A stretch of DNA of 64,000 bases from Escherichia phage AV101. The stretch lies in the sequence record OQ973471.1, one strand, 5' to 3'. Of the stretch, positions 43,070 through 48,639 are shown one piece after another. Each line of letters starts with the position of its first letter. Position 1 is the first letter of the stretch. A program made the translations under genes and the position numbers. Below the pieces are notes generated by a model, which was given only the letters and a program-made list of their open reading frames with translations, did not search any database and had not been told where the DNA came from.

Positions 43070-43423
43070 TTACGACAGCTGCTTCAGTTTGTAGATCGTC
43101 TGATAGCACAGTGTCTTGATTTCATCAAGCGTGTTCTGAAGGTGGGAGTCACACTGCTTGTAGATGCCATCGACGTCTATCACCACACTGTTGACATAGG
43201 CAATTGGGTCTGGGTTGTAGAGCTTGATGTTCTCGAATGATGGAACATACTGACCACCCGCACCGATGTATGCTTCGGTAAACGTGTCCAGCAAGTCCTC
43301 TAGATCCCCGTAGAACTCCCCGAGTGCCTTGTGCTTGGCATAGGATGTTGTAACGAAGTGCAAGGCATGAGAGTGGGCTATAGCAAGCAGTCCACGGTTG
43401 ATGAAAATACTCGCATTGACCAT
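43070..43423 (-). CDS. hypothetical protein
   Basis: GAGGA RBS; 117 aa. Confidence 0.4.
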   Translation of the reverse strand: MVNASIFINRGLLAIAHSHALHFVTTSYAKHKALGEFYGDLEDLLDTFTEAYIGAGGQYVPSFENIKLYNPDPIAYVNSVVIDVDGIYKQCDSHLQNTLDEIKTLCYQTIYKLKQLS

Positions 43424-43516
43424 GATGTTGTCCTCAGAAAAAGAAATCCCCCTGTATTTAGGGGGATCCAGTTACAGACCAAGTTCTTTCGTCGTGGCGT
43501 CGTCTAGTGCAACCTC

Positions 43517-44095
43517 CTAGACAGGCTTAACACCGAGGAACTTGGCAATGTCAGCAGCCAGGTTTTTACCCTTGCTGATGTCGTGTTCTTTACCGCCGAC
43601 AGTAACGATAACATACGGGTCATCTTCACCACCGAAGTTCACGGTGATCGCCTTGCCGATGCCAGGGATGCCAGGGATGCCAGAGTATTCGAACTCAGTA
43701 CGACCACTCTTGCGAGACTTGCCAGCACCCAGTGCTTTACCGATCATCTTGTCCATGTTCGCCAGTTCCTGAGCATAGGATTCGGTCACCTGGCCTTTGT
43801 CGGCAGACTTGCCAAAGAAGAATTCGAAGCCGTCATGGACAGCAACGACTTCCTGACCTTGGGAAATACCGTGAGTCTGGTCTGGGGTCAGCTTCACCTT
43901 GATGGTGTTGCCGTTGGTTAACTCCAGGTTGTAGACATCCGCCTGATTGTCAGGAGTGATCTGGGTCACGGTAGCGCCGGAACACCACTGGGTGCCGTCA
44001 GCTTGCTTGGTGATGGATACGGTCTTACCCTGGACACCAGCATGTGTCTGAGGTTTAGCGGCTTGTTCTTTAAAGTATTGAAGGAACGGTTTCAT
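43517..44095 (-). CDS. late protein of unknown function (likely virion-associated)
   Basis: TATAAATA late-promoter motif on minus strand (44110-44117) and GAGGAGA RBS. Confidence 0.5.
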   Translation of the reverse strand: MKPFLQYFKEQAAKPQTHAGVQGKTVSITKQADGTQWCSGATVTQITPDNQADVYNLELTNGNTIKVKLTPDQTHGISQGQEVVAVHDGFEFFFGKSADKGQVTESYAQELANMDKMIGKALGAGKSRKSGRTEFEYSGIPGIPGIGKAITVNFGGEDDPYVIVTVGGKEHDISKGKNLAADIAKFLGVKPV

Positions 44096-44109
44096 CTTGA
44101 ATCTCCTCG

Positions 44110-44117
44110 GGATTTCA
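44110..44117 (-). promoter_or_regulatory. T4-type late promoter motif TATAAATA
   Basis: Minus-strand TATAAATA immediately after terminator hairpin, before gene starting at 44095. Confidence 0.55.
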
Positions 44118-44118
44118 G

Positions 44119-44132
44119 TTATTTATAAGCCC
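44119..44132 (-). terminator. stem-loop (GCCCC-CGAA-GGGGC) separating large gene from late gene
   Basis: 5-bp GC stem with tetraloop, immediately before late promoter. Confidence 0.45.
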
Positions 44133-44151
44133 CCGAAGGGGCTTTAGATGA

Positions 44152-46872
44152 TCAGATTTTAATCTGCATGTTGCCGCCCAGGGACTGCTCATACTCACTG
44201 TATGCGCTCTCCCCGTTGCTTGCAGCCCATTCGTCCGACTGCTGAGCACGAGCCAGAGTCATCAGGTTTGGTTCAGTCGGGTTGTATCCCTTGGACTTCG
44301 CATCCTGATACACGGTCTGCAGGTACTGGTTGGCACGGTCGATCTGCCCTTTGAACTCGCGGAAAGCCCCTTCGGTTGTGTTGCGGCGGAAGGTGATATC
44401 CCAATCGACGTTCAGGGTTTGCCCATCACGGCTTGCATAGATCTGCCAATCCAGGTCGCGACCTTTTGGAGCATTGTCGCGGATGGATCCGGCGTATGTC
44501 GCAAGGTCAACGCCAGTCTTCTTCGCAGTACTCGACTCTTTCTCCAGTCTCTCGGTTTCTTTGGACAGGATACCCAACATAAATTCATTAGTGCGGCGAT
44601 CCGCCATGTCGTACCCGCGCCAAAGGACTGAACCGTTGTCGTCAACAGAAATGTCGTCCAAGAATACTTGTTTCGGATTATGCGACGTGCTTTTCAGAGT
44701 TTGCATATTCCGAGATATCATTTCCATTTTAGAAGAAATTTCATCGATCACGGCCTGAACAATATCTTTCTTCAAAGTAAGTTCATATGTCTTCGGATTG
44801 TTCAGGGTACGACCTTTATTGGATACCATAGGCGTGATCGCCACTTTGCCTTTGTCGTAGTAATAGGTCACATTCGTGGTCAATACAGCACCATCATACT
44901 TCCCAGTTTTCGGGAAATTGACGCCAGACCAAGTGATGGACATACCGTTGACAGTCTCACCAAACACCATGGCGTTGCGTGGCATCTTCAGGGTTCCAGA
45001 GTTGACCAGATCAGCGCCTTGGGCATTCAGGTCGATAGAACCATAGATGGCCCCGGTAATACGATCTTTCAGCATCAGGGTCTTGTCGCCCTTCTCTGGG
45101 ATGATTTCCAGCGGGTGCTTGCCACGCGGAGGCTCTTTGATGAGTTCCAGCAGAGCAGTGTTCCCAGGCTTCACACGATTCAGGACAGCGTCGGACACTG
45201 TCAGAGTCCAGTTTGCGGTTTCCACATAACCCCAGCCCCGAGAACGGCGAATGGCTTTGATAGGATATGGAGCGCTTGTTGGCACTGCGCTAATTTCCCA
45301 TTTGCCAGTGTACTGGGTCTTGGCAACCTCAAAGATGGACGCAATTACCGCATTGGCGACGTCACGGGCGCTACCTTTGGCCACGTTCTCCTCTTCAGCA
45401 ATTTCGCTGAAAACTGAGTATTGAACGAAACCAGCGAGGACGTTTGTGAAGTTGACAACGATAACCAACCCGCCTGCCGTCGTGTAACGACCAGCGCCCA
45501 CGCGACGGATGTTTTCACCAGGAAGAATAGAAGTGTCCAGCCCAACGTTGGTATCAATGATACCCAGAACACGAGCGATGAAACCGCTGTCACGTAATTG
45601 ATCAACACTGGTTGCACTCTCGGTCGAATCCGATGCGGATTTAGACACTTTGTTCAACTTGATAGAGACAAGGGTTTCCCCGTTGACACCGATGATATCC
45701 CATTCAGTACCCTGCTCGTTCGAGGTGCGGGCAATCTTGCGCTTTGAATTGATGGCACCTTCGTAACGCCCGTTCTTGACCACAACAGAGGCAGTAGCAG
45801 CATCAGTAGCACTTGCTGCATTTGAAAAGTCTGGGTCAGAAATACTGATGTCGACGTCACCGTTTTGAGAACGCATGCGAACACCGTTTTTGAATCGTTC
45901 CACGTTTACTTCTCGAGCACCAAGTCGTTTGGCATCAATAACAGCAGTTCCAGAACCGATAATGTTGGCTGGGTTATTTCTGTCTGAACTGTTTTGAGAA
46001 CCTTTCCAAAATTTTGTGGACGCCGTGGTGAAATCATTCAGGATACTGATAGGGACTTGCGGTAATTTCAACTGACGAGCAATGAAATCAGCACTTTGCC
46101 CACGCACAGGTTTCTCATTCATGTATGCGCCAACATACACGCCCGGCTCATTGTAGTGGGGAGCGATATTTGCCGTGTTCATGCGGCCTCTCTCCTTACC
46201 AGCCCATAACAACATGGGCTGATCCCCGTTTGAAGTTAATTTCCATCCGTTGGAATTATCAACAGAAGATGACACACCCACATCCGGAGTATTGTTCTGA
46301 ACCGGAACGTCACCGACCTTGTCTGGATCATCCCAGGTGATACCCTGCATCTTCGGACCGTCGAATACCTGAGCCGGATCTTTACCCTTGCGGACCAGCC
46401 ACACATAACCACGGTCAGGGACAGGCGCGTAGGTCAGGTCCATGACATTCAGTTTCTGTTTCAGGCCGGACTGGCGGATGATCTTAGGAATCAGGGTCAT
46501 ACCGCGATCCAGCGCTTTCTTAGAGAAGTTGACAGCAAAGCCATCGATGGTCTTACCCAGAGGAGTCGCCATGAATTGTTTGGTCGCTTCGATCATGGAA
46601 GCGATAACGCGCATTGGGTTCTTGAAGCGAGCGATGGCGTCAGGATAGACGGAGCCGCGCTTCTGGCCGATGAAAACCTGACGAACACTCTTACCCAGCC
46701 CCTGAGGGGTATAGAACTGAATACGGTATTCCTTTTCATCTTCGTCGATGAAGGTGAAGAACACATCGCCTGCGTTCTTCTTGCCCATGGTCAGCTCATA
46801 CGGAGCGGAGTTGAACGCTTCGTCCAACTGATCTCTTTCCTGCATGAACTGGAGGAAACTTAGCTTTGACAT
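44152..46872 (-). CDS. large hypothetical protein (907 aa)
   Basis: Start refined to ATG 46872 with GGAG RBS; no clear catalytic motif. Confidence 0.5.
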   Translation of the reverse strand: MSKLSFLQFMQERDQLDEAFNSAPYELTMGKKNAGDVFFTFIDEDEKEYRIQFYTPQGLGKSVRQVFIGQKRGSVYPDAIARFKNPMRVIASMIEATKQFMATPLGKTIDGFAVNFSKKALDRGMTLIPKIIRQSGLKQKLNVMDLTYAPVPDRGYVWLVRKGKDPAQVFDGPKMQGITWDDPDKVGDVPVQNNTPDVGVSSSVDNSNGWKLTSNGDQPMLLWAGKERGRMNTANIAPHYNEPGVYVGAYMNEKPVRGQSADFIARQLKLPQVPISILNDFTTASTKFWKGSQNSSDRNNPANIIGSGTAVIDAKRLGAREVNVERFKNGVRMRSQNGDVDISISDPDFSNAASATDAATASVVVKNGRYEGAINSKRKIARTSNEQGTEWDIIGVNGETLVSIKLNKVSKSASDSTESATSVDQLRDSGFIARVLGIIDTNVGLDTSILPGENIRRVGAGRYTTAGGLVIVVNFTNVLAGFVQYSVFSEIAEEENVAKGSARDVANAVIASIFEVAKTQYTGKWEISAVPTSAPYPIKAIRRSRGWGYVETANWTLTVSDAVLNRVKPGNTALLELIKEPPRGKHPLEIIPEKGDKTLMLKDRITGAIYGSIDLNAQGADLVNSGTLKMPRNAMVFGETVNGMSITWSGVNFPKTGKYDGAVLTTNVTYYYDKGKVAITPMVSNKGRTLNNPKTYELTLKKDIVQAVIDEISSKMEMISRNMQTLKSTSHNPKQVFLDDISVDDNGSVLWRGYDMADRRTNEFMLGILSKETERLEKESSTAKKTGVDLATYAGSIRDNAPKGRDLDWQIYASRDGQTLNVDWDITFRRNTTEGAFREFKGQIDRANQYLQTVYQDAKSKGYNPTEPNLMTLARAQQSDEWAASNGESAYSEYEQSLGGNMQIKI

Positions 46873-46947
46873 TTTATATCTCCTGATGGAATTATGACGG
46901 TTTCTTCTAATTAGCGAAACCAAAAGAGAGCCGAAGCTCCCCTTATC

Positions 46948-47389: not shown

Positions 47390-48025
47390 TTACGGCGTTG
47401 TAACCACCGGGATATGAGACCGAATTCCAGCGATGATGTCCTTCAGCTGAGGCTTCCATCCATCCACCAAACGGGGTAGAGCGATAGCACCAGGCTGGAC
47501 CAAAATGATGTCGCTGCCTGTGATATTGTGCTGAGGGAACTGGGCAAGGTACTGCTCCATGGTGACACCCTCATCAATCAGAACCGCACCGACGTCAGAC
47601 GATGCGTAGGTCGCACCCAGACCGTCAACGCCCCATGCCAAGATACCCCAGTCAGGGATGTTGGCTTCAGATGTGATGGTGAATCCAAACACAGTGTTCA
47701 GGGAGGTGAAGGAATAGACATCGTGAGTTATGTCATACACCAGATACCCCTTGGCCAGCATATCGGCAAATATCGCGTCCGTATCGCCAGCAGCCGGAGT
47801 CGGTACAGTAAACAACAGCTCACCCTCAGGAGGAGCAGGATACGTGCCGAGGGCATAGAGGCACCACGCATCGATGCACTTCTTGATAAATGCCTCCGGT
47901 GCGACATAATCAGCAAGGCGAACCGTACCTGAGTACTCTGATACGATAATGCCTTCCTTCGCACCCTGTAGAGCAATGAAGACCAAGATATGTTCATATC
48001 CGGCCTGAGATGGAGTGATGTTCAT
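47390..48025 (-). CDS. hypothetical protein
   Basis: Start ATG 48025 overlaps stop of upstream gene (TAATG). Confidence 0.4.
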   Translation of the reverse strand: MNITPSQAGYEHILVFIALQGAKEGIIVSEYSGTVRLADYVAPEAFIKKCIDAWCLYALGTYPAPPEGELLFTVPTPAAGDTDAIFADMLAKGYLVYDITHDVYSFTSLNTVFGFTITSEANIPDWGILAWGVDGLGATYASSDVGAVLIDEGVTMEQYLAQFPQHNITGSDIILVQPGAIALPRLVDGWKPQLKDIIAGIRSHIPVVTTP

Positions 48026-48639
48026 TATCTTGTCCTCTTCAGTTTCTCTATTGTGTGCCTGTTCATGGCGATCACCTGAGGATCTACCTCGGAGATGGTC
48101 CGGCCTTCGAAGGACACACATTTCTGAAGATATTTAGCTTTCTTCACGACGTCGGCAGCATAAGCGTTCGATGCAGGATTACGGGCGAAGCCAGCATTGT
48201 AAGAGGAGAGGGATTTGCGGATATTCTGATTGTGATAGGTCAGCCAGAACTGCATCTCATCGAGGGCGGCTTGCGCGGCATATTCTTGGTCGGTCAGCAA
48301 CTTTATGGCGACATTGGCATAGCACTTGCGATTCTTACAACCTTCGCGATCACCAACTGTCTTCACCTTGTTCTGAAAGGCTCCCATGTTGGCCGCCTTG
48401 AGGCCGTATCGCATTGACACTACATCTTCGCCAGCGCGGCTCTCACGCCAAGATATGGCGGCCAGAGTGTAGCCAAGATCTTGTGTCTTGCCCACGTGAT
48501 AGGCGGTTGCCATCGTATTAAGTTGTTGCTCAGAGAAATTATAAACACATTGACTTGTATTTTGGGAAGCGTGCACATTCCCGCTGGCAATGGTAAAGGT
48601 CACGGACAAGGCCATGGCCTTCAACGTTGTCATCGTCAT
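48025..48639 (-). CDS. secreted lytic-transglycosylase-like protein
   Basis: N-terminal signal peptide MTMTTLKAMALSVTFTIASGNVHA; SLT-like ISWRESR...GAFQ...YNAGF. Confidence 0.45.
   Translation of the reverse strand: MTMTTLKAMALSVTFTIASGNVHASQNTSQCVYNFSEQQLNTMATAYHVGKTQDLGYTLAAISWRESRAGEDVVSMRYGLKAANMGAFQNKVKTVGDREGCKNRKCYANVAIKLLTDQEYAAQAALDEMQFWLTYHNQNIRKSLSSYNAGFARNPASNAYAADVVKKAKYLQKCVSFEGRTISEVDPQVIAMNRHTIEKLKRTR

Follow-up and report, generated by a model that had tools for sequence, protein, structure and literature searches.

The question raised by this locus is what two adjacent genes of no recognizable family do in the replication and nucleotide-metabolism region of a phage, outside its structural module. 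The DNA analyzed, hereafter the window, is a 64,000-nucleotide (nt) stretch of Escherichia phage AV101 (Agtrevirus, Ackermannviridae; OQ973471.1), and the two genes, separated by a 56-nt spacer, encode proteins of 906 and 192 amino acids (aa). The window DNA is 95-97% identical to that of several Agtrevirus phages, and the larger protein matches a hypothetical protein of AV101 at 100% identity. An earlier reading, made from the sequence only, had described a 907-aa protein followed by a hairpin, a late promoter and a second protein, neither of them from a core structural family. Large gene, hairpin, late-promoter motif and 192-aa open reading frame (ORF) are all found on the minus strand, but the large protein is 906 aa long, 907 being the number of codons with the stop included. 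Both proteins are without a Pfam or NCBIfam match and fall only into PHROGs of unknown function (3867 for the large protein, 4048 for the small one, which also has a sub-threshold TOBE match in Pfam).

Packaged internal proteins (IPs) that bear a capsid targeting sequence (CTS) and are processed by the protease gp21 are textbook biology of phage T4, and the sequence-only reading had proposed that the two AV101 proteins are packaged in a comparable way. Our analysis leads to the same answer, to which we give a probability of about 0.7: both would be T4-type head-internal proteins, targeted through their N-termini, trimmed by a protease, retained in the head and ejected with the DNA. This proposal is supported by mass spectrometry (MS) of orthologues, by an Alt N-terminal-type (Alt-N) domain behind an (L/I)xE/A site in the 906-aa protein (slashes mark proposed cuts throughout), and by an IP-type CTS in the 192-aa protein. 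From this evidence we infer targeting, cleavage, a location inside the head, ejection and an effector role for both proteins.

Virion detection and the proposed delivery end of the large protein

Virion proteomics, suggested earlier as a check, is available from published work on relatives, where orthologues of both proteins were detected in purified virions of LIMEstone1 and Sajous1. In LIMEstone1, the 192-aa orthologue (ORF080) and the two halves of a split large orthologue (ORF081 and ORF082) are MS-confirmed structural proteins, with 2, 23 and 4 peptides, respectively; the 23 peptides of ORF081 are unique and cover 55% of it, second only to the tail sheath (Table 2 of that study), and its authors remarked that structural proteins without a known function cluster between ORF78 and ORF85 (PMC3296691). 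In CsCl-purified Sajous1, gp214, labelled a 'tail completion protein', is among the five most abundant proteins with 196 spectra, while gp215, gp216 and gp217 gave 32, 20 and 10 (PMC10892097). We take gp214 and gp215 as the orthologues of the 906-aa and 192-aa proteins because in Guerrero, a sister phage, the genes run in the order RegB, structural, hypothetical, 'tail completion' (795 aa, homologue H38), 190 aa, 79 aa and 117 aa. The published 'molybdate-binding' call for gp215 (PMC10892097) agrees with the TOBE match of the 192-aa protein.

Three kinds of evidence, a family hidden Markov model (HMM), a co-linear hhalign alignment and a structure-model match, identify residues ~19-185 of the 906-aa protein as a homologue of T4 Alt's N-terminal domain. 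When 1.84 billion representatives were searched exhaustively with HMMER, this domain was found as the N-terminal part of ~80 proteins (300-1439 aa) that otherwise differ from one another. A profile of 79 of these family N-termini, run with filters off in a search space of two sequences against the N-terminal 240 residues, matched the Alt proteins of T4 (E 7.9e-5) and of Salmonella phage Melville (E 8.2e-7), in a co-linear alignment that pairs model positions 79-173 with Alt residues 87-182. By hhalign, residues 15-178 align with Alt 3-179 over 158 columns at P = 0.0026, with a calibrated probability of only 11%. The Alt side of such comparisons is thin, since a search of a large protein database with the T4 Alt N-terminus returned only five near-identical matches. 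PF26846 is placed on the N-terminus of T4 Alt fragments by the database's precomputed annotation, and we found no mention of this family in the literature.

The structure models point in the same direction. An AlphaFold2 model of residues 1-200 built on a diverse alignment reached a predicted local distance difference test score (pLDDT) of 88.4 and a predicted template modeling score (pTM) of 0.80, while an earlier full-length model had left the N-domain below a pLDDT of 50 because the alignment used there was nearly invariant. Searched against BFVD with Foldseek, the N-domain found its obvious relatives first and then models of Alt or 'RNA polymerase ADP-ribosylase' from phages phiAS5, HY03, 50AhydR13PP, CF1, SP18 and Henu6 (E 7e-7 to 4e-5, TMq 0.55-0.60). 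Further matches in this search were to proteins with deaminase or ParB domain annotations, consistent with a delivery domain that does not depend on its cargo. Apart from the cleavage-site Glu, every near-invariant position of the N-domain is hydrophobic or Gly. With no residue of catalytic appearance among them, the domain is more likely to serve in binding or as a scaffold than as an enzyme.

The leader in front of this domain carries a candidate processing signal. In AV101 it reads MSKLSFLQFMQE/RDQLDE/AFNS, combining a CTS-like helix (F6/L7/F9/M10) with two x-x-E sites, the conserved one being LDE18/AF. Across the 79 family members the leader is 4-45 residues long (median 17) and ends in an E-containing x-x-E motif in 77, with L or I at P3 in 67 and A or S at P1' in 70. 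The hhalign alignment pairs Q-L-D-E18 with L-I-T-E6 of Alt (ITE6/LF), and gp21 is known to cleave T4 Alt at ITE-6, removing exactly six residues (PMC5694885). The capsid-targeting or processing motifs that the earlier reading advised looking for are thus present in both proteins, as the (L/I)xE/A site here and as the IP-type CTS of the 192-aa protein described below.

What follows the N-domain differs from Alt. No ADP-ribosyltransferase (ART), peptidase or nuclease domain, another suggestion of the earlier reading, was found in the 906-aa protein by Pfam profile search at E <= 1; for the ART family PF03496 in particular, T4 Alt scores 5.8e-36 and the AV101 protein gives no match at that threshold. 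Since the ART domain is missing, the 906-aa protein is not an Alt orthologue or enzyme and is Alt-like in its delivery part only. Two distant relatives of the N-domain, P0215 and P0273, do carry a C-terminal PF03496 domain (E 9e-10 and 2e-11) that aligns to the ART of T4 Alt (E 0.003 and 7e-8).

Mapping BLASTP segments over 120 homologues gave a modular picture of the large protein. Residues 1-~195 are almost invariant, the region ~198-415 has modules inserted, deleted or duplicated such that homologues range from 555 to 1208 aa, and the last ~126 residues are also swapped. No self-similarity was found among the middle modules within the AV101 protein. Sequence comparison of both proteins with PDB chains gave noise only, and a Foldseek search of PDB with the full-length 906-aa model gave no meaningful match (template modeling score about 0.06). 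The predicted mature protein is mildly basic, with an isoelectric point (pI) of about 9. In the HMMER search, the C-terminal 'TFRRNT...YSEYEQS' domain was also found by itself, in many small proteins from metagenomes, and it may be a common internal-protein module; several of these small proteins (among P0219-P0278) have CTS-like or M[KR]L..L.E/MAAKK leaders, e.g. MKTFKEFVKE in P0229. The contigs that carry P0229 were short, and its gene neighbourhood gave no further clue.

In some relatives two or three ORFs, adjacent or overlapping, stand in place of the large gene, namely ORF082/ORF081 in LIMEstone1 (L003:4348-5944) and orf109, orf110.1 and orf110 in Ag3 (L002:6951-9330). The C-terminal half in LIMEstone1, ORF081, begins inside the Alt-N domain and is without the leader, and both halves were seen by MS. 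The split may be real, or it may reflect a frameshift, either programmed or introduced by sequencing.

The 192-aa protein and its predicted targeting sequence

The 192-aa protein starts with MKPFLQYFKE, a predicted CTS that closely resembles those of T4 IPII and IPIII. Its family begins MK[PTSK]F[LIVSA][EQ][FY][FLM]xE (e.g. MKTFLEFFTE, MKTFIEFLNE) with E10 invariant in the family alignment, and in the T4 genome IPII and IPIII start MKTYQEFIAE and IPI starts MKTFKEF. In published mutagenesis of the CTS, targeting depended on residues 4 and 7 and processing on residues 8 and 10 (PMC9026906); at these positions the 192-aa protein has F4, Y7, F8 and E10. Beyond the CTS, the family has no similarity to T4 IPIII (hhalign E 0.22).

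A pattern derived from T4 (^MK.[FYW]..[FYW][FILMV].E) was run over 6273 candidate starts in the window and nearly the whole LIMEstone1 genome. It hit five, all of them real gene starts, against about 0.05 expected by our estimate. The strict hits include the 192-aa gene, which is the only one among the 1885 candidate starts of the window, and LIMEstone1 ORF080, ORF167 and ORF173, with looser matches at ORF079 and ORF007. ORF173 (L010:25191-25649) opens with MKTFLQYLQE and is an MS-confirmed virion protein with an ART-PolyVal ADP-ribosyltransferase domain (PF18760, E 5e-12), and for this reason we consider that the CTS motif marks packaged proteins in Ackermannviridae. ORF173 is likely a packaged and injected ART of this family of phages, separate from the Alt-N-domain protein. 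LIMEstone1 also encodes a homologue of the prohead protease gp21, ORF140.

Within the 192-aa protein, a second Glu, E105, is invariant in the family alignment and sits exactly where alternative C-terminal modules join (P0144-P0149). One such module follows the CTS cleavage site directly in LIMEstone1 ORF079 and follows VTE in some members of the 192-aa family. Because an invariant Glu stands at a module junction and the same module is found behind a CTS site, a second protease site and two small mature products are predicted.

Further small LIMEstone1 proteins with CTS-like starts are ORF079 (L003:6580-6819, MKGFQDFLLKE), ORF007 (L008:6316-6549, MKGFQDFLED) and ORF167 (L010:19808-19993, MMKSFSDYLNE). 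AV101 has no ORF079 between its 192-aa and 117-aa genes, and the window holds no homologues of LIMEstone1 ORF173, ORF079, ORF007, ORF167, ORF174 or the N-terminal fragment of the protease.

Proposed route into the head and competing readings

Taken together, these features suggest the following route. During prohead assembly the N-terminal leaders would dock both proteins onto the scaffolding core, the 192-aa protein through its CTS decapeptide and the 906-aa protein through its 18-residue leader followed by the Alt-type domain. A gp21-type prohead protease would then cut after Glu, at LDE18/AF and possibly also at FMQE12 in the large protein, and at FKE10/Q and probably VTE105/S in the small one, the latter yielding two pieces of ~9-10 kDa. 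The mature proteins would stay in the DNA-filled head and enter the cell with the genome. In this scheme the 906-aa protein would resemble an Alt whose ADP-ribosyltransferase has been replaced by rapidly reshuffled modules of no assigned activity, and this reshuffling suggests a role in host interaction or counter-defence.

Three known systems help to place the proposal. T4 Alt shares with the 906-aa protein a homologous N-terminal domain of ~170 residues and a short propeptide whose last residues, (L/I)-x-E, align (ITE-6 in Alt, LDE-18 here); both are large virion proteins of several domains, with genes that lie away from the main structural module. Alt differs in that the C-terminal ~700 residues of the 906-aa protein are unrelated, consisting of variable modules and a conserved part of unknown fold, in that the leader is 18 rather than 6 residues long with an extra IP-like FLQFMQE element, and in that LIMEstone1 seems to package its ART independently, as a small CTS-ART-PolyVal protein (ORF173). 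The T4 IPs share with the 192-aa protein the pattern of the decapeptide (M-K-x-aromatic-x-x-aromatic-hydrophobic-x-E, as in MKTYQEFIAE), the character of a small late virion protein, and a hypervariable locus with module exchange; unlike them, the 192-aa protein is near-neutral (pI 6.9) rather than strongly basic and is probably made of two cargo modules around the second x-x-E site. MuF-fused polymorphic toxins and 'polyvalent' virion proteins (Aravind group; PMC9503650) follow the same plan of an N-terminal head-association module with interchangeable C-terminal domains delivered with the DNA, whereas the AV101 protein would use Alt-N and a cleavable leader for delivery in place of MuF or a portal fusion, and its cargo is without a recognizable enzymatic domain.

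Several observations weigh against the packaged-effector proposal. The Alt-N homology is remote (about 15-20% identity), and though three methods agree, no single score is decisive. The MS data come from relatives and place the orthologues in the virion preparation, not specifically inside the head. Searches gave no function for the ~700 cargo residues of the 906-aa protein, and a surface-exposed protein could likewise have such variable, beta-rich modules and be this abundant. At the proposed sites of the 192-aa protein, P3 is F or V and not the L or I of T4. Lastly, the 906-aa gene has no late-promoter-like motif directly upstream, and none within one mismatch of TATAAATA, the T4-type late-promoter motif that precedes the 192-aa gene.

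A rather unlikely alternative accepts the location inside the head and assigns the proteins a morphogenetic role as core or scaffold components, like T4 gp67, gp68 and IPIII, instead of an effector role after injection. The targeting and cleavage signals are indeed of the kind found on T4 core proteins, the large protein is very abundant with an N-domain that is extremely conserved within the family, and IPIII mutants affect head assembly in T4 (PMC9026906). However, a protein that determines geometry is not expected to be split or truncated, as the large gene is in LIMEstone1 and Ag3, or to vary between 555 and 1208 aa. The N-domain is moreover fused elsewhere to effector-like ART or deaminase/ParB-annotated proteins, and the orthologues persist in mature virions rather than being degraded.

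We also think it unlikely that the 906-aa protein is an external structural protein, such as a tail-completion or terminator-like, neck, baseplate or capsid-decoration protein whose beta-rich modules are surface-exposed and under diversifying selection. This would account for the 'tail completion protein' label in Guerrero, Sajous1 and UPM 2146, for the abundance of the orthologues in virions, and for a module number that varies as in Hoc-like decoration proteins. Yet no Pfam, PHROG or NCBIfam match connects the protein to a tail, neck or decoration family, its N-terminal domain is Alt-N with a conserved protease-type site, its gene lies in a replication and IP-like region rather than the structural module, and LIMEstone1 already has identified Hoc, gp3, gp15, gp13 and gp14 proteins. 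Two specific identities of this kind were rejected: the protein has no membership by sequence or fold in the gp3, gp15 or terminator families, and it has no Ig-family Pfam match, the Hoc homologue of LIMEstone1 being a separate protein (ORF006).

That neither protein is a true virion component, both being abundant late or replication-region products that co-purify and whose N-terminal motifs are coincidental, is very improbable: the genes do sit among replication genes and both MS studies found low levels of the non-structural ligase, PhoH and gp44, but independent studies of two genera detected the proteins, the large one with an abundance among the highest, the CTS pattern hits far exceed expectation and all fall on real gene starts, and the cleavage-type motif is conserved over 79 diverged relatives.

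Going beyond head-internal packaging, one could tentatively propose that Alt-N with its cleavable leader is a general head-delivery platform of T4-related phages that had escaped recognition, analogous to MuF, with interchangeable cargoes (ART, deaminase/ParB-annotated domains, the AV101 modules). The hypervariable AV101 modules would then be pre-made, injected counter-defence effectors that contribute to host range in Ackermannviridae, and the 192-aa protein a protease-processed 'polyprotein' of two internal proteins. We see this extension as possible rather than probable.

A 2024 review of Ackermannviridae does not use the word 'internal'; for phage S117 of this family, tailocin-type knock-outs of the MCP or portal are on record (PMC11721090). 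CTS-type internal proteins in this family, the Alt N-terminal domain in an abundant 'tail completion' or hypothetical protein, and Alt-N as a separable module on many cargoes all appear to be unreported. Ackermannviridae such as ViI, CBA120 and AV101-like phages are used in biocontrol and their engineering is under way, while more than half of their genes are unannotated. Reading the two proteins as packaged gives abundant virion proteins a testable role and corrects 'tail completion protein' labels; it makes a hypervariable injected protein a candidate determinant of success against host defences, and natural capsid-targeting tags could serve to load foreign proteins into these phages. For T4 itself, it presents the Alt N-terminal domain as a separable module found on many different cargoes.

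Expression signals and neighbouring genes

The sequence-only reading assigned a late promoter to the 192-aa gene, and a late-type motif does precede its start; the 906-aa gene is without a late promoter of its own. The window contains three exact copies of TATAAATA, and near-matches are no commoner than chance, so the motif by itself lacks significance and owes its credibility to where it lies and to its conservation. It is kept in Agtrevirus and Limestonevirus, and the LIMEstone1 annotation has a putative late promoter at the equivalent site. CBA120 has GCTAAATACA instead, which resembles the late motif reported for Ackermannviridae, CTAAATAcCcc (PMC7283392). Late expression of the 192-aa protein would start from the TATAAATA promoter, while transcripts for the 906-aa protein would probably start at promoters further upstream and read through a UUCG hairpin. 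The only near-matches ahead of the 906-aa gene, of the CTAAATAT type, are 1.2-1.8 kb upstream of it, and matches like these occur no more often than chance predicts.

Three hairpins accompany these signals (Table 1). The one behind the 906-aa gene overlaps the late-promoter motif, the first T of TATAAATA being the last base of the stem in its 3' arm. A 65-nt stretch containing it has a folding free energy (dG) of -16.7 kcal/mol (z = -2.1), and its core, AGCCCCTTCGGGGGCT, is unchanged in all five Ackermannviridae phages compared; it has no U-tract, and the terminator scan did not call it. The hairpin upstream of the 906-aa gene (dG -21.3 kcal/mol and z = -2.6 for 83 nt) is likewise absent from the list of the terminator scan. 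The hairpin behind the 192-aa gene contains in its loop CTAAATAC, the Ackermannviridae late motif, upstream of the 117-aa gene, which encodes the next virion protein.

Table 1. Features of the two-gene locus, in window positions; mature ends and protease sites are predictions from sequence
Feature	Position	Strand	Sequence or remark
906-aa protein gene	44152..46872	minus	907 codons including stop; ATG after AGGAGA
Predicted propeptide, codons 1-18	46819..46872	minus	MSKLSFLQFMQE/RDQLDE/; near-invariant residues in family alignment
Predicted mature start A19 of 906-aa protein			AFNSAPYELTMGK; after LDE18 cleavage
Alt N-terminal-type domain, residues ~19-185	46318..46818	minus	almost invariant within Ackermannviridae
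Variable array of ~100-120-aa modules, residues ~198-415	45628..46281	minus	BLASTP segment map; lower-confidence beta-rich model
Conserved alpha/beta core of unknown function, residues ~416-780	44533..45627	minus	modeled at pLDDT ~80-90
C-terminal 'TFRRNT...YSEYEQS' domain, residues 781-906	44155..44532	minus	exchangeable among homologues
192-aa protein gene	43517..44095	minus	ATG after GAGGAG
Predicted CTS, codons 1-10	44066..44095	minus	MKPFLQYFKE; predicted cleavage after E10 (FKE10/Q)
Predicted mature start Q11 of 192-aa protein			QAAKPQTHAGVQGK; after FKE10 cleavage
Predicted second prohead-protease site, codon E105	43781..43783	minus	GQVTE/S; invariant Glu in family alignment
Predicted start S106 of second piece of 192-aa protein			SYAQELANMDK; after VTE105 cleavage
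UUCG-tetraloop hairpin, 9 bp, U-rich tail	46923..46944	minus	between upstream 111-aa ORF and 906-aa gene
UUCG-tetraloop hairpin, 7 bp	44127..44144	minus	AAGCCCC-UUCG-GGGGCUU; directly after stop codon of 906-aa gene
T4-type late-promoter motif	44120..44127	minus	exact TATAAATA; 24 nt upstream of ATG of 192-aa gene
Intrinsic-terminator-like hairpin with T-run	43444..43469	minus	after 192-aa gene; terminator scan

The gene order around the pair is gp47/gp46, a gene annotated 'RegB', a 212-aa ORF, a 111-aa ORF, the 906-aa and 192-aa genes, a 117-aa ORF, primase, endolysin and PhoH. The ipII/ipIII locus of T4 is flanked by regB and the lysozyme gene e, and thus shares with the AV101 locus its position between regB-like and endolysin genes; hypervariability is also common to both. 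In the Ackermannviridae-like Vibrio phage D533, the syntenic locus downstream of gp47/gp46 (L006:4424-9991) consists of 737-aa and 999-aa ORFs followed by one of ~200 aa; the 999-aa ORF bears an Alt-N domain, and a second tblastn match lies elsewhere in the D533 record.

NCBIfam returned nothing for seven proteins of the gene cluster. Several neighbours of the pair have orthologues detected in virions. The 117-aa DUF5856 protein (window 43070-43423, minus strand), called a 'starvation-inducible transcriptional regulator' or 'ferritin-like' in relatives, has orthologues MS-confirmed in virions (LIMEstone1 ORF078, Sajous1 gp217) and is without a CTS. The 212-aa DUF7270 protein (window 47390-48028, minus strand) is the orthologue of the MS-confirmed LIMEstone1 ORF085 and has no CTS-like start. 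The 204-aa ORF (window 48025-48639, minus strand) called 'RegB' in relatives has a signal-peptide-like N-terminus (MTMTTLKAMALSVTFTIASGNVHASQ in the LIMEstone1 orthologue) and a weak Pfam match to SLT lytic transglycosylases just below the cutoff (E 4e-4). For gp211, its orthologue in Sajous1, 31 spectra were recorded from purified virions, and the RegB label may be wrong.

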